DNA from: Bacteriovoracia bacterium
Lineage (GTDB): Bacteria; Bdellovibrionota; Bacteriovoracia; Bacteriovoracales; Bacteriovoracaceae
Assembly (NCBI GenBank): GCA_046570105.1
Contig: JBKHVI010000074.1
Coordinates: 1-10,746, forward strand
Reading direction: 5' to 3'
DNA length: 10,746 nucleotides
A model generated the notes under the pieces. It ran no database searches. It was not told where the DNA came from and saw nothing but the letters and a program-made list of their open reading frames with translations. The position numbers were made by a program, and so were the translations under genes. Positions 140 through 10,746 of this stretch are shown piece after piece (the first letter of the stretch is position 1; each line of letters starts with the position of its first letter).

Positions 140-454
140 CTAAGCACCTATTTTCAGAGCATAGAACTCAAGTTTTCCGGAATAGTAAAGGCTATCCATG
201 ATAGATTGGATAGTTGTTCGATTAAATTCAACGCTCTCCATCGAACAAAAAGCGAATTGATTTAAGTCCTCAAAGAAATATTCCCGTGCAGTTTCAGAAA
301 GGACTGAAGCTATTCGCCAAATTAAAGCTACATCAGATCCCTGACAGGCTGTCAGCAGAGTCACATTATCAATTTCTTTTAGTACAGTTATAACATCACT
401 GTCAGAAAAATAAAGAAGATCTGAAAATTCAAAAATTGAATCATGGTTTTCCAT
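140..454 (-). CDS. Stand-alone FliG C-terminal domain-like protein (~104 aa)
   Basis: IFEFSDLLYFSDSDVITVLKEIDNVTLLTACQGSD…IASVLSETAREYFFEDL…SVEFNRTTIQSIMDSLYYSGKL aligns without gaps, by eye, to the FliG_C pattern (F.FEDL..LDD..IQ..LREVD...L..ALKGA…I..NMS.RA...L.E.....GPV....VE.AQ..I....R.L...GEI). GAGG at 464-461 lies 6 nt before ATG 454. The start overlaps the recombinase stop. There are no FliG N or M domains. Confidence 0.75.
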   Translation of the reverse strand: MENHDSIFEFSDLLYFSDSDVITVLKEIDNVTLLTACQGSDVALIWRIASVLSETAREYFFEDLNQFAFCSMESVEFNRTTIQSIMDSLYYSGKLEFYALKIGA

Positions 455-1400
455 CATTATCCTCATCTAAAATCGTATTTGAAACCAAAGTTGAAATTGC
501 TCCTTGGGTGTCGCGTTCACGGTCACGATAGATCATCAATGTTGCGACCGATTTATGGCGAGAGTGATCCATGACTTCTTCCAACGCATACCCATTATTC
601 TGCGCAACCTTGCATGCTTCACTGATAGAAAGGTGGCGAATTCCGTGAGGTCTTGTTTTCACTTTCACATCTTCACCGAGTCCACGGATCAATTCATAAA
701 GTCCAACCCTGGTCAGCCGCTTACGCTTCCTTTTGTCACGAACAAGATTATAGAAAAGAGGACCATCAGCGTTGCCTCGTAGCTGAATCCAATCCCTGAC
801 AGCATCAATGCTTGTTTGTGGGATCGAGAGATATTCACGCTCAGATCTTCCTTTACCTTTGATTGAGATTCGTTTTTGTGAAATTTCTAGGTGTTTAAGG
901 TCAAGTTCTACGAGCTCTGAAGCACGAAGGGCTAAGTCAAACATCAACCTAAGAATTGCGCGATCACGAGCAGCCTTGACACTGCTTTGTTCTGTTGCCG
1001 TAATTATCATTCGCTTGAAGGCTGGCAATCCTGGCCCCTTTGTATCACGGTAAGCTTGTGATTTGATGTTTGGAATTTCAACTTTGATTGAGGTGAACCC
1101 AAGCAAACGAGCCAACTTAAATAAGCTACGAATTGCACCAAGACGACGATTTATTGTTGAGGGGCTGAAGTTTCGCTTCCTGAGATCGTCTCGATACTGA
1201 AGGATAAGAAAGTTCATCTCTCCGCTATTCATTTGTAGCAAGGGCTGCAATGATAGAAGATTAAAATTACTCATTAAGAAATCTTGGAAGCAGCCTAGAT
1301 CAGCTCTATAGGCCTCACGAGTTGCAGCACCTTGACTCGATAGGAATGTTTTCACCAACAAACCAGCACGTTCTTGAAGCGTTACGGGTAAGAAACTCAT
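441..1400 (-). CDS. Tyrosine recombinase/integrase, XerC/XerD-like (~319 aa)
   Basis: Core-binding domain motifs (ATREAYRADL; SPSTINRRLGAIRSLFK) and a full catalytic set: R in LALRASEL, K in KGKG, HxxR in PHGIRH, H in SRHKS, Y in TLMIY. Start moved to ATG 1400, which follows AGGAAGAAGG. No lambda-type arm-binding domain is evident. Confidence 0.93.
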   Translation of the reverse strand: MSFLPVTLQERAGLLVKTFLSSQGAATREAYRADLGCFQDFLMSNFNLLSLQPLLQMNSGEMNFLILQYRDDLRKRNFSPSTINRRLGAIRSLFKLARLLGFTSIKVEIPNIKSQAYRDTKGPGLPAFKRMIITATEQSSVKAARDRAILRLMFDLALRASELVELDLKHLEISQKRISIKGKGRSEREYLSIPQTSIDAVRDWIQLRGNADGPLFYNLVRDKRKRKRLTRVGLYELIRGLGEDVKVKTRPHGIRHLSISEACKVAQNNGYALEEVMDHSRHKSVATLMIYRDRERDTQGAISTLVSNTILDEDNDGKP

Positions 1401-1431
1401 TGGACCTTCTTCCTGAAATACATAAGCCACG

Positions 1432-1761
1432 ATGAAAACATGGCTCCTATTTTTAGTTCTTCTCTGTTTCGGGTTAAGCACTGAAGCAAGACAGATTGTA
1501 AGTATGTTCAATGCATGCGACCAGTGTCGATCTTGGTCAGCTAAAAGCACAGCAATTTTAATACAAACTCTAGATGCTCACGAGGTTGGCTATGAATTTG
1601 TTGCTGTAAGCAACCAAGTGATTTTAACTTCAGTAGGTCAACATCCTGTTTGCTACGAGCCATTTGCAATATTTTTCGAAGATCAGACGTCTTGCCGTCA
1701 GTATTTAAGCCGCATCAAATTCAAATGTGAGTTGACCGTCACTGCCATCACTGGCTACTGA
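1432..1761 (+). CDS. Possible small secreted Cys-rich protein (109 aa)
   Basis: Convincing Sec signal peptide (MKTWLLFLVLLCFGLSTEA|R) and the ORF fills the gap between recombinase and helicase. Against it: no clear RBS and a 57-nt tail-to-tail overlap with the helicase gene. Confidence 0.45.
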   Translation: MKTWLLFLVLLCFGLSTEARQIVSMFNACDQCRSWSAKSTAILIQTLDAHEVGYEFVAVSNQVILTSVGQHPVCYEPFAIFFEDQTSCRQYLSRIKFKCELTVTAITGY

Positions 1762-2925
1762 CACTGCTTCGCGGGTTCTGATCTCAATGGACCAGGTTGT
1801 TCCTCTATTGGTTTTCTTAGACGTAGCCCCATGTCCGGACACCTCTAAGATCCGTTTTAAATCCCTGGCGAACTTCTGAAACTGGGGGAAGGACTTTTGA
1901 TTCTGCCACAAACAAAAATCTTTGAAGGATTCATAGAGTTCTGAAGTCGTAAGTGATGACTCGTCAAAAGACACGACTATGCAATTTTCCTCGACCCATT
2001 GTTCAACTATGTCTTTTACTCTGATTTCAGCCTCCTGTACTTTGCGAATGTCACTTAGTACTTCAAGAATCGGAGTAGGCCCATTTTCATCAACTGAGCG
2101 CCATAGGGCTAAGTAGTCGATGCAATTGATTGCATTCCAATCAATTTGGCCTGCGCAGTTTATCTGCCAAAATCTGCGTGAAGATGTTGGGTCCTTAATA
2201 CGATCACGAACAGGATCATTACTGCAGCCAATGAAAGTTGAATTTTGAGGCGCTGACATCACACGCTCTGTGCGCATAGCTCGCCATTCTATGACAGGAG
2301 TTGTAATGATTTGCTTCATGGCATTCACGTCAGCATTGTCACTTCCTTGTAGTTCATCGAAAAAGACCACGAAATTTCTTGCAAAGGCCCTGCGACTGAA
2401 TTGGTCACTAAAGATCGACATATCCGTCTGCAAAGCAACGGCTCTGAGTGGCTCAATTAGCTTTGACACCGCTACAGATTTGCCGGCCCCTGATCGACCA
2501 AAGAGGATAGGCATCAGATGATGTTCGACTGCTTGTCCTAAGAGTTTTCGTTTAACTTGCCAAATGAAATGCGTTACGACAGCAATATCTAACTTTGAAC
2601 TCTTTCCGCAGACAGCGGTAACCCAAGTCGCTATCGGATCATTCTGAATAGATGTATAAGCCAGATATTGAGTGAGGAGTGTCAATTCAACTTTAGCTCG
2701 TTCATAGCGATAGACATTTAGCCCGTCACGGATATAAGAACGCAAGCTTTCAAGATCCTGTTCGTGGGCATCGAGACGCAAGAGGGATACTGCAAGCGTT
2801 TCTTCAAATACTGAATCACCTTTCCTAAGTGAATCTGTTTTGTAATCGTAATCTAGGCCATGTTCTTTTAGTCGCTCGATGACCCATGCTTTAGGTTCAA
2901 TGGGTTGTATATCTTGATCGTCCAT
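1705..2925 (-). CDS. VapE (virulence-associated protein E)-like SF3 helicase with C-terminal winged-helix domain (~406 aa)
   Basis: Walker A ILFGRSGAGKS, Walker B VVFFDEL, motif C FIGCSN and SRRFW. The C-terminal LTTSELYESFKDFC…KFARDLK segment resembles the D5/P4-alpha winged helix. Strong RBS AAAGGAG 5 nt before ATG 2925 (MDDQDI…), preferred over 3006. Confidence 0.88.
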   Translation of the reverse strand: MDDQDIQPIEPKAWVIERLKEHGLDYDYKTDSLRKGDSVFEETLAVSLLRLDAHEQDLESLRSYIRDGLNVYRYERAKVELTLLTQYLAYTSIQNDPIATWVTAVCGKSSKLDIAVVTHFIWQVKRKLLGQAVEHHLMPILFGRSGAGKSVAVSKLIEPLRAVALQTDMSIFSDQFSRRAFARNFVVFFDELQGSDNADVNAMKQIITTPVIEWRAMRTERVMSAPQNSTFIGCSNDPVRDRIKDPTSSRRFWQINCAGQIDWNAINCIDYLALWRSVDENGPTPILEVLSDIRKVQEAEIRVKDIVEQWVEENCIVVSFDESSLTTSELYESFKDFCLWQNQKSFPQFQKFARDLKRILEVSGHGATSKKTNRGTTWSIEIRTREAVSVASDGSDGQLTFEFDAA

Positions 2926-2983
2926 TAGGGCTCCTTTTTGTAGAGCGGTAAAGTCAGGATCAATATTTAAAACTAAATTTGTT

Positions 2984-3006
2984 GTCACTGTCGTCACTTC
3001 CGTCAT
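2984..3006. repeat. Three GTCA(C/T) repeats at 9-bp period just upstream of the helicase start
   Basis: GTCACTGTC GTCACTTCC GTCAT, with GTCA at 2984, 2993 and 3002. Confidence 0.6.
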
Positions 3007-3149
3007 GCTAAGGGCCTACCTGACGGCTACCTGGCCTGCCACTTTCGGTGAGTTAAAATGAAATCTAAGCGTCTACCTTCAGGGCACTTTGGTTTTGGTA
3101 AGGAAGAGGAGAACTACATATCTAAGCTGCTGAATTGTCAGAGATGTGT

Positions 3150-3195
3150 GAAAGAAAAGAAGTAAAGGCAGCGCCTCCTCCGTGAAATACTGCCT
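3150..3195 (-). terminator. Probable intrinsic terminator after the 3204-3551 gene
   Basis: Minus strand reads AGGCAGT…GCTGCCT (stem) followed by TTACTTCTTTTCTTTC, starting 8 nt after the stop codon. The loop is large. Confidence 0.55.
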
Positions 3196-3203
3196 AGAAA
3201 ATT

Positions 3204-3551
3204 TTATTTGTTGGCTATTACGACTGACTTACTTATTGTGGGAGTTGTAGAGTCAATGATCCTTTTGGCTTCCAGCTCACCAGCGACAGAGATAAATGCG
3301 TCCTTCCAAGAAGGGCAACGGCGTTCGGTTGTTTTGATGCTGACATAGTGATGACTTTCAATTCTAGCACCACCTTCAATTCTTGCAATGAGATTCTCTT
3401 CGAGGGCAGCTAGATCAGAATCGATCTGCTCAAGGCGCTTCTTTATAAATGCCTTGGACTCACGAAGGTTAATGATTTTTACGACATCGGCATCCGTTAT
3501 TGAAATACAGCTTGATTCGGGCGAACATTTTATTGGTTGGACACTTTGCAT
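3204..3551 (-). CDS. Hypothetical phage-like coiled-coil protein (~115 aa)
   Basis: Strong RBS AAAGGAGG before ATG 3551 (MQSVQPIK…). Central heptad segment KAFIKKRLEQIDSDLAALEENLIARI. Confidence 0.75.
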   Translation of the reverse strand: MQSVQPIKCSPESSCISITDADVVKIINLRESKAFIKKRLEQIDSDLAALEENLIARIEGGARIESHHYVSIKTTERRCPSWKDAFISVAGELEAKRIIDSTTPTISKSVVIANK

Positions 3552-3757
3552 AGGGCCTCCTTTTATTTGAAGGAATCTCGCTTCAGGAAAAGTGGCCCCA
3601 CTGGCCTCAGGATAAAAGGGAACCCCTATTTTCAGAATGGGTCCCTTGGTGTGCGCTTTGTGTATGCGACATTTCTTTTCTATTGTAAAACAGGGGCCCG
3701 CCGGCCTGATAGCCAGTTTGGGGCCCCAAGGTACTAATGGGTTTATAGTGCAAAAGT

Positions 3758-4192
3758 TCACTTCTCGATTCCGACTCCATTGATTCTTTTGTCACGACGG
3801 AGCCAATTATTGAGTAGGCCCAAGCAGTAAAGTTCCATTGCTTTTGCGTCCGCCATTTTTTTCTTATTCGACTCTGTATCCTTTAAAGTGATTTTCTTTG
3901 CTTGAAATCCAGCAACCAGAGCTGCGCAGATTTTTTTGATATGAGTCTCATTTAAAAGAGGTTTCACCGGCTGTTTGTTGGGCACGACAATTTTCTCCTC
4001 GCGAACTAAGCGCATCACTTCGATATACACGGCTTCTCGCTGAGTTAATACTTGAGATTCCTGTTTCTTCTCTTGGGTGGATTGAAATACGGAATCGGAC
4101 TTTTTCTCAAGCGTAGCTTTGATCTTATCCGTCACAGGTGTTTCGCTTTGGACACCACCAGGAACGAGCTTTGGTTTTTGTTTGCTTTCCAT
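3758..4192 (-). CDS. Hypothetical basic protein (~144 aa), first gene of the leftward operon
   Basis: RBS AAAGGAG before ATG 4192 (MESKQK…). Lys-rich, with a conserved-looking C-terminus YCLGLLNNWLRRDKRING. Confidence 0.78.
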   Translation of the reverse strand: MESKQKPKLVPGGVQSETPVTDKIKATLEKKSDSVFQSTQEKKQESQVLTQREAVYIEVMRLVREEKIVVPNKQPVKPLLNETHIKKICAALVAGFQAKKITLKDTESNKKKMADAKAMELYCLGLLNNWLRRDKRINGVGIEK

Positions 4193-4248
4193 AAGACATT
4201 CTCCTTTTTTAGTGGTCCCGGTTATCGTGACCAACGGTGTGCTCCTAC

Positions 4249-4329
4249 TTTCGGGAAGGTGTACTAAACTCTGTTTCTATGTACGGAGTTGTGTTTTTTT
4301 GAGACAGTGGGGTCCACTCCTTCCCGAAA
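4249..4329. promoter_or_regulatory. Long imperfect inverted repeat in the divergent control region
   Basis: Perfect 11-bp arms TTTCGGGAAGG (4249-4259) and CCTTCCCGAAA (4319-4329), plus inner arms CTGTTTC (4271-4277) and GAGACAG (4301-4307). Confidence 0.65.
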
Positions 4330-4348
4330 TCAGTCGAAGATAAATAAT

Positions 4349-4705
4349 ATGACAACGACAAGCCGCAAACGTAAAGGGACGGATAATCTTCCTTTTGCTA
4401 AGATATTAGAACGAGTAATGGAGGAGCGTGGCCTCAGCATTGGTGCAATTGCTGAAATGGCTGGTGTGTCTCGTTCCGTTGTTCAGTCGTGGACATCAAA
4501 AGCAAATCCTCACGATCTACAAGCTGTAGCGAAGCTTGCAAAAGCGCTCAACATGGGATTCAAGGAACTACTTCTTGGTGAGGCTGAAGATAGTTCCTTT
4601 TCAGAGATTTCAGCAAAAGACCTGTTCGACGAGCAAGATTTTTTTGACGGCATCTGTCGCGTCAAAATTCAGCGACTCGTTCCAAGGAAAGGACCCAACA
4701 AATGA
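4349..4705 (+). CDS. XRE/Cro-CI family HTH transcriptional regulator (~118 aa)
   Basis: FAKILERVMEERGLSIGAIAEMAGVSRSVVQSWTS…LQAVAKLAKALNMGFKELLLG is a typical HTH_3 pattern. No S24 peptidase domain. ATG 4349 has no obvious RBS. Confidence 0.9.
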   Translation: MTTTSRKRKGTDNLPFAKILERVMEERGLSIGAIAEMAGVSRSVVQSWTSKANPHDLQAVAKLAKALNMGFKELLLGEAEDSSFSEISAKDLFDEQDFFDGICRVKIQRLVPRKGPNK

Positions 4706-5088
4706 CCGATATCATTTTGCCAATCTTATTTCTAGTCGGCGCAGTCTCTGTAATCGCGTTGATAGCTGTACCCTTTGTTCTTCGGGGTCGCAAGAAGGGT
4801 AAAATCCGTCACGCAAACTTTGTCGCGACGAAAGCACTTTATGAAAAGGCCATGCTAGATCTTCAAGAGAACCCAGAACATGTCGACGCACGAACGAAAG
4901 CGCTGCAAGTTGGGCGTGAATACTACGCCTACCTTCATCCACAGCTTTGCAACTTCGGATCTGACGAACGGCCGCTTCGTCATCATGGAGACCCATCGCA
5001 AATAAGCTTTCGGGATGATGCCGAAATTATAGAAACAAAAATCCAGTCCGACATCCAAGCGCGGATTGGGAAAGGGAAAGTATCATGA
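4702..5088 (+). CDS. Hypothetical single-pass membrane protein (128 aa)
   Basis: N-terminal hydrophobic helix IILPILFLVGAVSVIALIAVPFVL followed by basic RGRKKGK. ATGA overlaps with both neighbours. Confidence 0.8.
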   Translation: MTDIILPILFLVGAVSVIALIAVPFVLRGRKKGKIRHANFVATKALYEKAMLDLQENPEHVDARTKALQVGREYYAYLHPQLCNFGSDERPLRHHGDPSQISFRDDAEIIETKIQSDIQARIGKGKVS

Positions 5089-5693
5089 GAAAAATCACCA
5101 CTGCCTCTTTATCTTTATTTATCCTTGCCGGTTGCTCGTCGGCTCCGGTTTCGACTACGCCCGAGGCAATGCCCGACAAAGTTCTATCTCGCATCAACGA
5201 TATATCGAGCCGACCTTTGTGGTTAAATGAAGAAAAACCTTTCGAAGTGAAGGATGGAGTTTTGACCTCACTTGGTCAAACAACGATTCCAGGAAGTGAC
5301 CGAGTTGAGGCGGCCTACAATATTTCTGACAACAACGCTAAAGGTGCAATTTGCTCAGCAATTGAATCAAGACTTGATTTTGTGTTCCAGAATGCAGAAG
5401 AAGGAACGGCGGTAGACGCTAATCAAGTTCGCCGTATTGGCGCAGAAGCTTGTAAAATCACGTCATCTTCTTTAAGGCCAGGAGTGAGATACTGGGAGAA
5501 GGTAGCAACGTCAACCGATTCGGGAGAAAGAGTAACCAGGTACAAAGTTTTTTCCACAGTAACCATGCCTGAGGCTGATTTTAGAAAAGCAGTAATGAAC
5601 GCAATAAAAAAACAAGAAGGTAAGCCTGGCATCAGCGAGGATTTTTCAAAAAAAGTAGACCAACACTGGGACGCATTTGTCCAAGGAAAGTAG
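5085..5693 (+). CDS. Lipoprotein, LPP20-like (202 aa)
   Basis: Signal peptide with lipobox ILAG|C. The P.W motif (RPLWLNE), SLG, A…A…NAK..I helix and RYWEK strand recall LPP20-type lipoproteins; the family call is tentative. Confidence 0.8.
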   Translation: MRKITTASLSLFILAGCSSAPVSTTPEAMPDKVLSRINDISSRPLWLNEEKPFEVKDGVLTSLGQTTIPGSDRVEAAYNISDNNAKGAICSAIESRLDFVFQNAEEGTAVDANQVRRIGAEACKITSSSLRPGVRYWEKVATSTDSGERVTRYKVFSTVTMPEADFRKAVMNAIKKQEGKPGISEDFSKKVDQHWDAFVQGK

Positions 5694-5694
5694 T

Positions 5695-6078
5695 ATGAAA
5701 AAAAGCATTCTTTTTGGATTTGCTGCTGTATTTTTTTGTTTGGAAACTTTCGCCACTGAAAAGATATTTCCTGTTCTAGAGTTGACGTCATCTACATGGA
5801 CACACGAAAGTGACTCTGAGTTTGCCATAGTTGTTGGACAAGTAAAAAATATTTCAAAGAATAAGTATGACTACGTGGAAGCAGTGGCGAACTTTAGTGA
5901 TGCTAAAGGTAACTTGATTGCTACCCATAGTAGTCTAATTCAGTACAATCCGATTCTTTCCGATCAAGTCTCGCCTTTCAAAATCATGGTTCCTTGGAAT
6001 CCAGCCTTTAAAACCCTAAATATTGAGTTTCAACAAACGATGCGAGGTAAGCTTGAGCATAGGACAAAAAAGAAGTAA
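5695..6078 (+). CDS. Secreted FxLYD-domain-like protein (~127 aa)
   Basis: ATG 1 nt after the previous stop; signal peptide MKKSILFGFAAVFFCLETFA. IVVGQVKNISKNKYDYVEAVANFSDAKGNLIA…ILSDQVSPFKI matches the FxLYD Ig-like pattern (G.V.N…V...FYD..G.LI…L.PG…PF). Confidence 0.8.
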   Translation: MKKSILFGFAAVFFCLETFATEKIFPVLELTSSTWTHESDSEFAIVVGQVKNISKNKYDYVEAVANFSDAKGNLIATHSSLIQYNPILSDQVSPFKIMVPWNPAFKTLNIEFQQTMRGKLEHRTKKK

Positions 6079-7144
6079 TCTTGCTGCAGTTCTGTCTCTA
6101 ATTAGTCTTTCAGTCAGTTGCGTTTCGACGCCGAAGTCTGTTGAAGCTCCACCTATTTGTTCTAGAAAACTTGCTACGCAAAAATATGTATGGACAGTGG
6201 CTTTTTCACAACGAGTCCCAAAGAATATCGAACTATCGAAAGTTTCTGATTTAGTGAAGCATCGCTCGGATTTGCAGGATAATGTCACTGATTCATTTGT
6301 GGGCGGATTAATTTATTTAAGCTCAAATAATGGGAGCTATTCTAGCCAATCTCGTTCACAACATAATCACGCCCTGAATCCGCAGGCCAGGTATTTAGCG
6401 GAGGAACGAAGCGCTGCTTTAATTGAGACAGGCGCTTCGAATTTTATATTTTGTATTTGGGATGAGTGTCAGGGGCTCAAGGATCCTCAGACTGGATCTG
6501 AGATTCAGAAATACTATGACTCTGACTTCGCTCAACGTGCCGGAGCCCCGGTGCGACCAATGTATTATGTAGAGGGTATAGTTGATGCGTCTGACAGTAG
6601 ATACAATGACCATAAAACTTCAAGCTATAACGCTCCAAGCCCCGCCTATGTTGAATGGTCTGACTACTTTGAACGACGCCCCTTCGCCGGTGGCAACCTG
6701 TTGAATCAACACTACTTCAATATCCCCGTATCGAAAAGAAGTGAGTTCTGTTTAAAAGCTGGACTTGAGAAGAATTGTTTTGAACTTCCTAAATATGACT
6801 TTCGAAATGATATCGTAACATTTCTGAGTTGCAATATCAGAGGGGGCGATTGCCTAACGGAGCTACAAAAAAATGCTCCGTTTCGATTTCAGTTTTTGTC
6901 TGACAATAATGGGTTATGCGGAACAAGTTGCCGCGATGATATTAATACTATGCTAGAGAAATTAAGGAATGATCCTCACTTTAGATTGCAGTGGGAAGAT
7001 GCAATTTCAAAAGATATATTTTTAAAGGTATCTACATCAATTACAAGAAAGGTTGAAAAGAATTGGATTATCCATCGGATCGAGTGGAATCCAACTTTTT
7101 TCTGTCAATATGCCCGTCCAAAAGCTGATCTTATTACTCAGTAG
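6053..7144 (+). CDS. Hypothetical Cys-rich probable lipoprotein (~363 aa)
   Basis: Long ORF with hydrophobic LAAVLSLISLSVS|C lipobox-like N-terminus. Start uncertain: TTG 6053 after GAGGT, or TTG 6023. Several paired Cys (CIWDEC, C…EKNC, CNIRGGDC, CGTSC). Confidence 0.75.
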   Translation: MSIGQKRSNLAAVLSLISLSVSCVSTPKSVEAPPICSRKLATQKYVWTVAFSQRVPKNIELSKVSDLVKHRSDLQDNVTDSFVGGLIYLSSNNGSYSSQSRSQHNHALNPQARYLAEERSAALIETGASNFIFCIWDECQGLKDPQTGSEIQKYYDSDFAQRAGAPVRPMYYVEGIVDASDSRYNDHKTSSYNAPSPAYVEWSDYFERRPFAGGNLLNQHYFNIPVSKRSEFCLKAGLEKNCFELPKYDFRNDIVTFLSCNIRGGDCLTELQKNAPFRFQFLSDNNGLCGTSCRDDINTMLEKLRNDPHFRLQWEDAISKDIFLKVSTSITRKVEKNWIIHRIEWNPTFFCQYARPKADLITQ

Positions 7145-7793
7145 CCTTCTGCCAGCTTTTGCGAGCTCTGGAGATTTACCTTCATGGATTATGAAAGGTC
7201 CGGTGTCGGACAATTCATTTCACTATGTTGTATGTTCTCATGATGGAATCGACCCTGAAGAGTCACGTCAAATTGCGGAATCGAAATGCCTAGTCAGCGC
7301 TGCAAAGCTTGGTGGTGTCAAGGTCAAGATCACCCAGAAGACTGTGCAGAGCTTGACGGGTTCGGACTCAAGCGAAGTTGCAGAGATTCAGCCACTTGAA
7401 GTTAATATTAAGTGTGAATGGACAGACCGATTTCTTGAAAAGATTAAGGATGGATTTCGTGTCTGGCTTCGCTGCAAGGTCGCAAAATCCTCCTTAACTA
7501 CTTCTATATTGAGCACTAAGAACAATGATCACGCTACCAACAAGATGGCAAATCGGGTGGAAGCGACTTTGCTTATCTCAACTGTGCCGAAAGCAGATCG
7601 GATTATTATTGTCGGTGAAGGTGGTGAAAGAGTAATCGAACCGATTTCGAACGTAGTCACCACAATGGTGTCAAGTTACGATTACAAGATCGAAGTTACC
7701 AAGCATGGATACAAGCGAGCCATTATCGAGATCCCCACTAACCTAAAACATGGTGAGAAGATTCAGAGAACTGCCGTTCTTGAAAAAGACTAG
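7110..7793 (+). CDS. Secreted protein with LPP20-like N-terminal part and PEGA-like C-terminus (~227 aa)
   Basis: Signal peptide MPVQKLILLLSSLLPAFA; LPSWI motif; C-terminal LLISTVPKA…YKIEVTKHGYK…AVLEK resembles PEGA. Overlaps the upstream gene by 35 nt. Confidence 0.72.
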   Translation: MPVQKLILLLSSLLPAFASSGDLPSWIMKGPVSDNSFHYVVCSHDGIDPEESRQIAESKCLVSAAKLGGVKVKITQKTVQSLTGSDSSEVAEIQPLEVNIKCEWTDRFLEKIKDGFRVWLRCKVAKSSLTTSILSTKNNDHATNKMANRVEATLLISTVPKADRIIIVGEGGERVIEPISNVVTTMVSSYDYKIEVTKHGYKRAIIEIPTNLKHGEKIQRTAVLEKD

Positions 7794-7821: not shown

Positions 7822-9180
7822 CTATTTTTTAAGAAGCAGTTTTTCTAATGAATACTTCTCATGCACTTTAGCATAGTTAGTCAGCTCGACAATGGATTCG
7901 TGTGAAATTTCTTTAGACCTTGCAGACCAAGTTGTATCGGCGGCCCAGCTTTGTCCTTTATCGCGACCTACATAGTAAGCAACGTCGTCAAATTTATCTG
8001 CTAGGTATTCAAACAACAGTGGATGAATTTGATCCAATCTCAAATGTGAAATGAAATCGATTAATATAGATAATTTTTGATTATATCCCTCGAATGCTCC
8101 ATTGGGCTGACTCCGAAGTGATGTGATTTCGAAGCACTTAGCAAGAAACTGAATCATTAGTGTCGTCGATATCAGTTTTGCTCTTGAATAAGCATCAATC
8201 ATAGAAATTCTAAAGTCTTTATCGTCGACAAATTTAACAATATTTCCTTGCGCTGGATCCATTAGTGCCTCTGTTAATTTGCCTTTAATTTCAATCGATT
8301 TGATATCGGCCTCTTTCTGAATCCTTATTTTTTCGCCTATTTCATTGAGAAAATGCTCCAGGTCTGATGTTTCGATGATAAGTACATTGTTTTTATCTCT
8401 GTAAGGCTCAGATTTTGGATTGTCCGACCATTTTACTTGGACAAAATCAGAAGGAATCAATACATTGGTTTCATTGAAAACATTTTTTGCCCAATCCATC
8501 GCTGTTAAAACATTTTGGTCGCCGATTCCATATCCAAGAATTACCACAGTAGATTCTTTAAACTTCATTGGAAGGCTAACTTGCCGGTAGTCGTTGGGCC
8601 GATTAATAGCTATATAGTCCTCCTGTGTAATGACTATGGAATCTGGCTTCAATCTATGGCCATGTAAGTGATATATTGGAATTTGACCTTTTGGGACAGC
8701 AAAGGTATCTCTTGGTGAAAGTTGCACGCCTCTATCTGGTAACATACTTTCAATCACAAAATCATAATTCGTTGTTATTATCCACGATGGATCAATTTCA
8801 TTTAAATAGTCACCGATCTTTTTTCGAGTCTCAGGTTGTGGTAGCCAATTTACAATTCTCGCAATCGTACTTTTAAATTTTACCACTGACTCTCCATATG
8901 TGATTTTACTACTCTCTGAAATAAAGCCACATATTTTTGAGGCTTGGTCTGGGTAGCCATTTGACTCTCTTACGACTTCTTCAATATCCAAATTGAATTC
9001 CTCGCATATTTTTTCGAGAAGCTGTTGCCAACTGAGAGGTTTGTTTGCGCCACCTACAAATGCCTTCGAGAATCCCGCTCCAATAAATAGCCCTAGGGAT
9101 CCAATTGTGCTGGATTCCGCAAGAAACTTCATCGTATCTTCTCTTGTTGGTGTTGCGACCAATTTTGAAGATATGCTCAT
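7822..9180 (-). CDS. SIR2_2-family (sirtuin-like, putative NADase) protein with uncharacterised C-terminal domain (452 aa)
   Basis: LFIGAGFS, LSWQQLL, IITTNYD, IYHLHG, IVITQEDY and ILGYGIGDQNV are the ordered SIR2_2 motifs. RBS AAGGAG upstream of ATG 9180. Confidence 0.92.
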   Translation of the reverse strand: MSISSKLVATPTREDTMKFLAESSTIGSLGLFIGAGFSKAFVGGANKPLSWQQLLEKICEEFNLDIEEVVRESNGYPDQASKICGFISESSKITYGESVVKFKSTIARIVNWLPQPETRKKIGDYLNEIDPSWIITTNYDFVIESMLPDRGVQLSPRDTFAVPKGQIPIYHLHGHRLKPDSIVITQEDYIAINRPNDYRQVSLPMKFKESTVVILGYGIGDQNVLTAMDWAKNVFNETNVLIPSDFVQVKWSDNPKSEPYRDKNNVLIIETSDLEHFLNEIGEKIRIQKEADIKSIEIKGKLTEALMDPAQGNIVKFVDDKDFRISMIDAYSRAKLISTTLMIQFLAKCFEITSLRSQPNGAFEGYNQKLSILIDFISHLRLDQIHPLLFEYLADKFDDVAYYVGRDKGQSWAADTTWSARSKEISHESIVELTNYAKVHEKYSLEKLLLKK

Positions 9181-9197
9181 TATTGGTTACTCCTTAT

Positions 9198-9225
9198 ATT
9201 TAACAAAATGGACATTATGTAAACC
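9198..9225 (-). other. dif-like Xer recombination site (11-6-11)
   Basis: Minus strand reads GGTTTACATAA-TGTCCA-TTTTGTTAAAT, versus E. coli dif GGTGCGCATAA-TGTATA-TTATGTTAAAT: 22/28 identical, 10/11 in the XerD arm. It is intergenic. Confidence 0.72.
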
Positions 9226-9237
9226 ATGAGAAAAAAC

Positions 9238-9621
9238 TTAAGCGGCGTTTTTTACCTTCATCTCGATCAACTTTGCTTTGCTTTTTAATGGACGATAACA
9301 GTACCAGCCATCAACTCCAGCACTTCCAACCAATCTTAGGCTAAATTGAGTTTCTGTTTCTGTAACTCTAAAGATATCTTCTGGTAACCTTCTCGTAGTA
9401 ACTAGATTTAGAAAATGATCGACAGCAGTTCTCTTTGTATCAAGCTTTAGGTAGTATGCATTCCCACCAAACTTAAATTTGCAGAAAATTCCTGGATTAT
9501 TTTTATATATAGAACTGCCATCAAGTTGCTTGGCTGAGGGGTACTGAATTCTCCATTCACTCATTTTGATTATGAGTTCGTTGAAAGATATGGGAGTATG
9601 CTTTTTTCGTTTATTTTTCAT
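9238..9621 (-). CDS. Hypothetical small basic protein (~127 aa)
   Basis: RBS GAAAGGA before ATG 9621 (MKNKRKK…). Co-oriented with the SIR2 gene and 57 nt upstream of it. Confidence 0.72.
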   Translation of the reverse strand: MKNKRKKHTPISFNELIIKMSEWRIQYPSAKQLDGSSIYKNNPGIFCKFKFGGNAYYLKLDTKRTAVDHFLNLVTTRRLPEDIFRVTETETQFSLRLVGSAGVDGWYCYRPLKSKAKLIEMKVKNAA

Positions 9622-9770
9622 ATGATTCCTTTCAAATAAAAACACCGTGTTCCATCGGAACTTTGGGTGGAAAATTAAACGAGCTAATTGTATTGAATTT
9701 TGGAACACTTGACGTAAGTCCAGTGAAGATCCTATCTAAGATCACCGATAGATATTTACTGGAGCTAGTC

Positions 9771-10313
9771 ATGACAAATCGACTCAAAAAAGCGTCAACT
9801 AAAAATCATAACTTAGGTGAAGATCTTCGGTCTCCGTTTAATACTGACGAATGGCATAAGCTCTTCGATATTTTGGTGCAATACGAGCAAGATGGTGGTT
9901 CTGCTGACGACGAAGTCGGTCGCTTAATTCAAAAGTTTATCGAGAAACAATTTACTAGGCATTCGTTTCCCTGGAAAACTGAAGCTGATTTTGTAATAAA
10001 AAAAATGTTGGCAGTTGCTGGCTCATGGATTTTCGCAGGCAAACCGATACCAGCTAAGGATACATCAAATAAGAAAACGGCTGTAAATGTTAAAGGGCTG
10101 CTATCTAAGCAAGACTTTGACGACATTGTATCCGATGCTTTCACGAAGCTCATGGTTTCTGGAAACTATAATCTCACAGCAACTCAAGCTGAAAAATTCT
10201 CCTACATTTACCAAGTTACTTATTCTGCGACTATGGACCAACTCCGAAAACACAAAAAGTTTAACGCTCAACTGGTGCCAGATCCTGAGGTCCCACATAA
10301 GAAGACTGCATAA
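9771..10313 (+). CDS. Hypothetical protein with C-terminal ECF sigma region-2-like segment and no region 4 (~180 aa)
   Basis: RBS GGAG 6 nt before ATG 9771. DFDDIVSDAFTKLM…YNL…KFSYIYQVTYSATMDQLRKHKK follows the ECF sigma2 pattern DAEDLVQEAFLK…F…F.TWLY.IA.N…D.LRK.K. Confidence 0.65.
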   Translation: MTNRLKKASTKNHNLGEDLRSPFNTDEWHKLFDILVQYEQDGGSADDEVGRLIQKFIEKQFTRHSFPWKTEADFVIKKMLAVAGSWIFAGKPIPAKDTSNKKTAVNVKGLLSKQDFDDIVSDAFTKLMVSGNYNLTATQAEKFSYIYQVTYSATMDQLRKHKKFNAQLVPDPEVPHKKTA

Positions 10314-10323
10314 CTAAAGTTTG

Positions 10324-10382
10324 TGACTGTCATAGACGTCATAGAAGTCATAGAAGTCATGACAGCGGTGACAAGAATGACA
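10324..10382. repeat. Head-to-head 9-bp periodic GTCA/TGAC array (iteron- or operator-like)
   Basis: GTCAT at 10329, 10338, 10347 and 10356; TGACA at 10360, 10369 and 10378; central palindrome GTCATGAC at 10356-10363. Confidence 0.85.
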
Positions 10383-10415
10383 GCTCAGTTTCCATAATCA
10401 AAATAGTCCTATAAG

Positions 10416-10452
10416 TCCTTCAACCTTATTTCCTTCGCTTTCCTTCGACCTT
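10416..10452. repeat. Three TCCTTC direct repeats
   Basis: TCCTTCAACCTT (10416), TCCTTCGCTT (10431) and TCCTTCGACCTT (10441). Confidence 0.55.
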
Positions 10453-10517
10453 GATGATTAAACGTACAACTCCTCAAACAGTCCGCAATTAAGCGGCTGA
10501 TATAAAGGAGTATTGTT

Positions 10518-10746
10518 ATGAATAATGATCCAAAAACATCGACTACAGATGCGGAGTTCGTTTTTGCACACGAATTCACTCCGGTCGACATGGTGAGCTT
10601 TCTTTTAAAGCACGGCTACACTGCTGATCAAATTGAAGGACGTATTGTCGCTTCACCTGGCTTTGTAAAAGATTGCCTGTCTAGCACAAGCCCTGTTGGA
10701 GAAAATCTTGAGATGCCAATGGCTATGCTGAAGAACCTTTATCTCC
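10518..10746 (+). CDS. 5' part of a hypothetical protein with possible HTH (MNNDPKTSTTDAEFVFAHEFTPVDMVSFLLKHGYTADQIEGRIVASPGFVKDCLSS…), truncated by the window end
   Basis: Strong RBS AAAGGAG 7 nt before ATG 10518; open to the window edge; absent from the supplied ORF track. Confidence 0.75.
   Translation, partial: MNNDPKTSTTDAEFVFAHEFTPVDMVSFLLKHGYTADQIEGRIVASPGFVKDCLSSTSPVGENLEMPMAMLKNLYL

Follow-up and report, generated by a model that had tools for sequence, protein, structure and literature searches.

What is a dif-like 28-mer doing beside a putative defence gene, and which recombinase would use it? The question is raised by positions 9198-9225 of a contig from a member of the Bacteriovoracia. 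The window, that is, the whole stretch of DNA analysed here (10,746 nucleotides), is the entire contig. In the original prediction, it was suggested that the site may be the junction of a pdif cassette or an IMEX attachment site, driven by XerCD, or else a resolution site of an Xer-like recombinase encoded by the element itself, near-symmetric arms being suited to one enzyme. The features of the window are as follows.

140..466, minus strand: small FliG C-terminal-like ORF, overlapping the recombinase stop
441..1400, minus strand: Xer-like simple tyrosine recombinase, 319 aa (Pfam Phage_integrase and Phage_int_SAM_1; NCBIfam)
1705..3006, minus strand: VapE/DUF5906 primase-helicase-like replication protein, 70-83% identical in sister elements
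4289..4705, plus strand: Cro/CI-type HTH regulator
5085..7793, plus strand: lipoprotein-like gene cluster, inner module (tblastn synteny with sister elements)
7822..9180, minus strand: SIR2-domain putative defence gene (Pfam SIR2_2; PADLOC PDC-S25 and ThsA matches)
9198..9225, minus strand: 11-6-11 dif-type core site on which the tyrosine recombinase of the element putatively acts
9198..9208, minus strand: inner arm, TTTTG type, carrying the fixed T:T departure from symmetry
9209..9214, minus strand: spacer of 6 bp, putative overlap region
9215..9225, minus strand: outer arm, CATAA type (TTATG on the plus strand), directed away from the recombinase gene
9238..9708, minus strand: small ORF directly outside the site, with no Pfam, NCBIfam or PADLOC match
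9663..10746, plus strand: outer-module ORFs (9663-10313, and 10518 to the contig end)

The 28-mer and the element around it

On the plus strand, positions 9198-9225 read ATTTAACAAAA-TGGACA-TTATGTAAACC, an 11-6-11 dif-like pseudopalindrome with a self-complementarity of 8/12. Compared with E. coli dif, in the version printed in the consulted part of PMC3025954, the 28-mer is identical at 22/28 positions on the minus strand and 17/28 on the plus strand; the identity to B. subtilis dif is 19/28 on the plus strand. TTATGTAAACC is also the right arm of the dif sites predicted for Syntrophus aciditrophicus and Pelobacter carbinolicus in a table of the same paper. The site is intergenic, 17 bp from the ATG of the SIR2 gene and 12 bp from the stop of ORF 9238-9708, and an AAGGAG ribosome-binding-like motif (9190-9195) lies 2 bp from it. 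The resemblance to E. coli dif, the intergenic location and the distance to the SIR2 gene were thus as originally described. The XerD-like character claimed for both arms applies to one of them: the TTATG typical of XerD arms is found in a single arm, while the other has TTTTG, with a T:T mismatch that is fixed in all eight sites presented below.

In the 3.02-Mb assembly (87.8% complete), 9198-9225 is the sole match of at least 21/28 to E. coli dif, and 0.058 matches of at least 22/28 are expected per genome from base composition. With a leave-one-out matrix built from the seven other sites, it ranked first of 6,034,204 positions. No complete partner copy was found in the window, as the original prediction had noted, or anywhere in the assembly, where the runner-up has 18/22 arm bases; the further copies that were to be sought in the flanks and the genome did not appear. 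Unlike the folded-strand sites of the integron attC or CTX attP kind, the 28-mer forms no stable one-strand hairpin (-1.8 and -1.5 kcal/mol, z about 0, in a 44-nt context). A consensus scan for promoters gave three promoter-like sites against 2.2 expected, which lends no weight to the suggestion that recombination here would swap the promoter context of the SIR2 gene. With the window being a whole 10.7-kb contig, a terminus-type GC-skew switch was looked for at the sites of relatives instead: none was seen in G258, G242, G337 or G435, and a change was seen near the site in G436.

The 441-1400 recombinase is composed of core-binding and catalytic parts only and falls under the cut-offs of the XerC and XerD models. 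Its residues R159, K183, H252, R255, H282 and Y291, which we take to be the catalytic ones from the spacing in XerD, are invariant in 54 sequences. It is 28% identical to the host Xer, its nearest relatives are Bdellovibrionales records, and a PDB sequence search with its profile matched XerA and XerD chains and not Cre. Its gene lies 7.8 kb from the 28-mer. In most close relatives (L090-L093, L136, L137, L139), a stand-alone FliG C-terminal-like ORF lies behind or overlaps the recombinase stop; its product may be a motility modulator or an accessory factor of the recombinase.

The presence of the VapE/DUF5906 replication protein suggests that the element has a replicating circular stage. The lipoprotein-like cluster is shared, by tblastn synteny, with L093, L094, L138/L209, L139 and L212. 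The SIR2 gene is variable cargo immediately inside the site; its best protein homologues are 45-46% identical and, because no relative exceeds 46%, the context of its donor is not readable. ORF 9238-9708, with its conserved C-terminal GWYCY-like motif, is a marker of these elements and is often located ahead of the site: its homologues are followed by a sister site in G242 and L141, and by none in L136. Between ORF 9663-10313 and ORF 10518, a 9-bp repeat occurs in three and a half copies (10329-10360), possibly an operator or iteron-like array.

No DNA relatives of the window were found among 10 congeners. In runs X4 and X7, the window is included in single contigs of 16,814 and 16,861 bases, which start about 0.5 kb before it and stop about 5.6 kb after it. 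The common ends of these contigs probably mark the limits of the element, which would then be about 17 kb long; X4 and X7 may be the source runs. Both 16.8-kb contigs run straight through the 28-mer, so that the site is internal, and no joint or loose end was found at it in four runs of Logan contigs, which drop rare forms. In run X2, a relative 90-97% identical covers only parts of the recombinase-to-HTH module (within window positions 454-4578), with loose ends at 454, 4086 and 4578, a pattern consistent with modular exchange.

Sister sites beside homologous recombinases

A total of 125 loci around recombinase homologues were scanned with the arms of the window. The best sister site, in G337, is identical at 23/28 positions, has the identical spacer and lies 17.6 kb from a recombinase 68% identical to that of the window; a match of this quality is expected by chance 1.3e-4 times per 40 kb. 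Weaker sister sites were recovered by the arm scan in G242 and G258, and the core pattern combined with context added G437, G435, G438 and G436. Seven other genomes thus hold seven sister sites near homologues of the 441-1400 recombinase. All eight training sites (the window's and its seven sisters) are intergenic, 0.3-18 kb from the recombinase gene, with unrelated flanks. With the leave-one-out matrix, six of the seven sisters score comparably to the window site; G438 does not.

The inner six pairs are near-invariant across the eight sites, save the T:T mismatch, which is fixed in 8/8. The outer arms vary together: 34/48 outer pairs are complementary, against 44/144 in 24 other exact core matches, and when arms were swapped among the eight sites the mean fell to 21.1 pairs (p about 5e-5). 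These figures are somewhat favourable because G436 was picked partly for its intergenic, palindromic look. The spacer of the window is shared with G337 and differs in the other six sites, with T first and A last in all eight. The TTTTG arm is directed at the recombinase gene in 8/8, whether the site is upstream or downstream of it. As judged from these comparisons, 9198-9225 is a real, conserved site.

Among recombinase loci of at least 60% identity, the site is visible in only 2/10; five of these ten closest loci are on contigs of 5 kb or less, and two covered 10 kb upstream only. No site was found within 20 kb in L139, a close recombinase locus, on the 20-kb contig of G261, or in L136, where a homologue of ORF 9238-9708 is present. 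The exact consensus of three sites had no match in viral contigs and, among 401 genomes of the phylum, matched only its three source genomes, a circular result that indicates rarity only. The 12-base core seems over-represented in some genomes. A multi-copy regulon or pdif array was considered as an explanation and rejected, as 20/23 of the extra exact core matches fall within ORFs and the majority have poor palindromy.

Outside the 28-mer the window resembles G242, while inside it, beyond the cargo, it resembles G337. In G242, homologues of the last three ORFs of the window are followed, all within 5.5 kb of the site, by genes for a primase, a helicase and an integrase of phage type and by a tRNA-Ser; this integrase has no counterpart in the present assembly. 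The gene abutting the inner arm is SIR2 in the window, a DUF499/DUF3780/DUF1156/SNF2 cluster in G337, and unrelated genes in G435, G436, G437 and G242; a YgjP-linked nuclease-like gene was also seen as cargo. A gene lies 0-27 bp from the inner arm in the window, G337, G435, G436 and G437, and in the last four this gene terminates, and does not start, at the site. The synteny comparison proposed originally thus gave a break at the site between relatives; these are too distant for it to be placed to the base. Upstream of SIR2 homologues in viral loci, a dif-like site is absent in 4/4. In L083, a 21/28 match lies about 0.7 kb downstream. The G242 island carries two VapE-type helicase genes (C12:112100-113455 and 127187-128542) with the site between them, which suggests two fused satellite modules.

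Outside the training set, with a threshold of score 10 and palindromy 8/12, matrix matches were obtained in 34/115 recombinase loci against four in reversed controls. The TTTT arm is directed at the gene in 29 of these matches against seven (20 against six for unique sequences). Most belong to related phage contigs with recombinases 35-40% identical. On these contigs, the arms hardly change, the spacer is variable, and the distance of the site downstream of the recombinase gene is mostly 44-1147 bp. In L172, it is internal to the prophage, between a Gam-like gene and a methylase and before the terminase genes (labels read from translations). Real control DNA gave a background of 6-11 matrix matches per Mb. 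After clustering at 60% identity, and with clusters joined to a training locus excluded, 8/34 outside clusters have a match, four of them within 1.5 kb against 0.6-1.0 expected; a single 24-member cluster accounts for most outside matches.

Plasmids gave 28 matches to the recombinase at E 1e-30 or better. In the five whole replicons examined, one clear site was found in 1/5, plausible ones in 3/5 and none in 1/5. The phage-like replicon of Azospirillum thermophilum (54.9 kb) has exactly one site, circular pDESTI.01 one palindromic candidate (by a generic palindrome scan only), the Tolypothrix replicon two matches, one at the recombinase start, and the Annamia replicon a weak candidate beside the recombinase gene; the Crinalium replicon showed no credible site.

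The host Xer gene and a separate dif candidate

The host features are as follows.

G000:C2:119989-121038: host xer gene
G000:C44:2421-2448: host dif candidate, palindrome TGCACGATAA-N6-TTATCGTGCA (loci L315-L319)

A single conserved Xer-like gene is present in 10/10 congeners. None of the 11 genus genomes passes the XerD cut-off, a strict one that only 4/14 controls pass, and each has one strong Xer-like match; on the host Xer, that one protein, the XerC model scored 161 bits against 335. FtsK was detected in 8/10 congeners. Neither FtsK nor a 16S gene was found in the present assembly, probably owing to its incompleteness (87.8% complete). The arms of the window are absent from 10/10 congeners at up to three mismatches, the degenerate core is absent altogether from G008 (99%) and G003 (97%), and across 81 family genomes the canonical dif core is about as frequent as its backwards control.

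The flanks of the host xer gene contain no full conserved dif, only a half-site conserved just before the start codon, which possibly serves autoregulation. The search from this half-site led to the palindrome on contig C44. It occurs once per genome in 6/6 genus genomes examined (5/5 congeners searched), with zero control matches, two additional, poorly palindromic matches having been put aside. Close to it, a weakly positive GC skew becomes negative in G000, G001 and G008, and not in G005. The palindrome is not adjacent to xer in G000, and in G001 about 158 kb of contig C107 separate the two. The C44 palindrome is likely to be the host dif of a single-Xer system, of which no published description was found in titles and abstracts. 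It agrees with 9198-9225 at 10/22 arm bases, and by this comparison, which the original prediction had proposed, the 28-mer is not the host dif.

Canonical dif-like cores separate from the element sites are found in G435, G436 and G242, on other contigs. Elsewhere in the Bdellovibrionota, xer-like genes at L040:2500, L044:1268, L033:2711 and L034:2704 have 11-6-11 palindromes of their own within about 400 bp, which suggests that several single-Xer modules exist in the phylum. The host assembly also carries two tandem tyrosine recombinase genes (G000:C27:29285-31508), a separate mobile element, with a match to an FtsK/SpoIIIE-like ATPase at C27:34016, about 2.5 kb away.

A proposed cognate recombinase site and its alternatives

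Taken together, a site that is conserved with changing flanks, linked to the recombinase, covarying in its arms, single and internal leads us to propose, with a probability of roughly 0.6, that the 441-1400 recombinase has the 28-mer as its cognate core site, comparable to loxP with Cre or to the dif of a single Xer and located inside the element of about 17 kb. The site for the element's own recombinase in the original prediction thus gains support from the conservation and covariation seen beside homologous recombinases. One recombinase monomer would bind each arm and a homotetramer would join two sites, the fixed T:T asymmetry biasing the order of strand exchange. Recombination would take place across the 6-bp spacer, probably without accessory sequences since only 12 and 17 bp separate the site from its neighbouring genes. 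The probable task would be to return dimeric or concatemeric forms of the excised, replicating circle to monomers. Integration at a tRNA would probably be left to a second, phage-type integrase, known in relatives and probably encoded past the contig end here. As a by-product, spacer-matched elements could fuse and trade the modules that flank the site, which would account for the differing cargo found there. The facing bias of the inner arm (8/8; 29 against seven outside the set) is unexplained by simple resolution.

The same enzyme could act on the 28-mer as an attachment or end site, either by integration of the recombinase module at a palindromic CATAAT-N4-ATTATG target or by capturing cargo in an integron-like manner, so that the junction delivered the SIR2 gene. 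This is unlikely, even if it explains the orientation of the TTTTG arm towards the recombinase in the eight training sites better than resolution does, and even if genes abut the inner arm at 0-27 bp in five elements, the cargo there varies, and the window resembles an outer module of G242 type joined to an inner module of G337 type. Such a junction predicts a second one with the same overlap past the recombinase. The 35 kb downstream in G337 yielded none, the best candidate there being weak (6/12 palindromic, with a different spacer), and neither did the exact core matches across the whole G242 and G258 genomes. Moreover, the L172 phage site is internal, the hairpin advantage is absent, and no joint appears at the site in four runs. 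A role as a palindromic operator outside recombination, bound by the recombinase or an HTH regulator and controlling SIR2 or read-through, is quite improbable. The ribosome-binding motif of the SIR2 gene does lie 2 bp away from the 28-mer, and palindromes that covary are equally typical of the operators of dimeric repressors; yet the inner gene ends at the site in G337, G435, G436 and G437, the 11-6-11 geometry, dif-like core and free spacer suit a recombinase core, and the motif accompanies the recombinase into phage contigs that lack the HTH gene of the window.

Could the host enzyme be responsible? LME-1 in Legionella reportedly carries a dif mimic used by the host Xer. Here the single host Xer, alone on such a mimic or as a hybrid with the element enzyme, is a decidedly improbable user of the site: one arm is a perfect XerD-type arm, FtsK and one conserved Xer occur in the genus, and hybrid sites are described in the available part of PMC11014353, but the host dif candidate agrees at so few arm bases (10/22), the two arms vary together across elements, as would be expected if a single protein bound them both, the TTATG arm lacks the constancy expected of an arm recognised by the host, and three sister genomes hold separate canonical dif-like cores. 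Use of the site by host XerC and XerD, as the junction of a pdif cassette or as the attachment site of an IMEX, is extremely improbable, given the single conserved Xer-like gene and the different palindromic dif candidate. The 22/28 identity to E. coli dif and the adjoining defence gene had spoken for it; against it, XerD was not detected above the strict cut-off in 11 genus genomes, the canonical core stays at about control frequency in the family, no paired site was found in the assembly, four SIR2 homologues have no site before them, and the element is not lodged at the chromosomal dif, the candidate for which is on C44. This part of the original prediction is accordingly not supported. A chance match in AT-rich intergenic DNA is scarcely credible. 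The 0.058 expected per genome holds for one reference and would rise if several were allowed, and a bare 12-base core does arise by chance; conservation essentially refutes this explanation, through the 23/28 sister in G337, the first rank in the leave-one-out scan and the arm covariation.

Element-encoded tyrosine recombinases that resolve multimers or cointegrates are known from Cre/loxP of phage P1, ResD of plasmid F and TnpI/IRS of Tn4430. The present pair would share with them an element-encoded tyrosine recombinase and one internal core site, with resolution as its proposed role. An intact simple tyrosine recombinase is present on the same element, and a symmetric, covarying site co-occurs with the recombinase family, more weakly when counted per lineage (8/34). 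Unlike loxP, with its 13-8-13 geometry, the site here is 11-6-11 and dif-like, and no accessory repeats are seen.

Single-recombinase Xer systems, as presented in the consulted parts of PMC5357621 (XerS/difSL, XerH/difH) and PMC9765430 (XerL/dif, including a plasmid-borne copy in Coxiella), likewise combine one simple tyrosine recombinase with an imperfect palindrome of about 28 bp and a built-in asymmetry. In contrast, the pair described here is on a satellite-like element whose host has its own separate Xer and dif, and its site is kilobases from the gene, unlike difSL and difH, and probably not at the terminus. The 28 plasmid matches at E 1e-30 or better included no Coxiella plasmid. From the portion of PMC11014353 consulted, the nearest published mobile case is the hybrid site of Tn6022, in which an XerC-like protein acts with host XerD. 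Both are mobile elements with their own Xer-like gene, a dif-like site with one XerD-type arm and a proposed part in island diversification. The Tn6022 site, as described there, depends on host XerD, for which it retains a perfect arm; the present host shows no XerD, and the outer six bases of the TTATG arm differ among elements, covarying with the other arm. With pdif modules and IMEXs, as covered by the excerpts of PMC3025954 and PMC5357621, the site shares a dif-like 28-mer beside variable cargo; unlike them, it has no paired sites and no host XerC/XerD pair, and is not the chromosomal dif.

No published description of this recombinase-site pair was found in titles and abstracts, with subscription papers and bioRxiv supplements outside the scope of the search. 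Section 7 of PMC8138268, the part consulted, treats subgroups of simple recombinases, including a cyanobacterial one, and does not contain this site. An Azospirillum preprint (10.64898/2026.09.14.751567), in the part available, describes additional recombinases on secondary replicons, the smallest of which are reported to have no dif; its dif tables could bear on the phage sites. A broader proposal, which we put forward as a tentative one, is that the pair belongs to an undescribed Cre/loxP-like family spread across Bdellovibrionota satellites, alphaproteobacterial phages and some plasmids, with the site doubling as a programmed hub for module exchange. The 6-bp spacer would then set compatibility groups within which elements swap replication and defence modules, and the T:T asymmetry, with its arm toward the recombinase, would give a directional reaction that leaves the defence cargo on the inner side.

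The pair would offer a target site, and hence a testable function, for the common genes labelled 'integrase/recombinase XerC' on phages, plasmids and islands. It suggests a possible route for the reshuffling of defence genes in satellites of predatory bacteria, and its natural arm and spacer variants could yield small orthogonal recombinase-site pairs. A strong dif match need not imply the use of XerCD; the likely host dif here is another palindrome, served by a single Xer.

Sites of other types were also observed. A related lineage has GTTTAA-type sites with T....C-like spacers (L113:6479, L116:38 and 11601, L117:140, L121:8601), in both orientations and with two at one locus, more like pdif arrays. 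Near the genes of distant homologues, fully symmetric CATAA-N6-TTATG sites are found (L159:11001 and 11667; L161:12029; L194:1395), the two in L159 being 666 bp apart.
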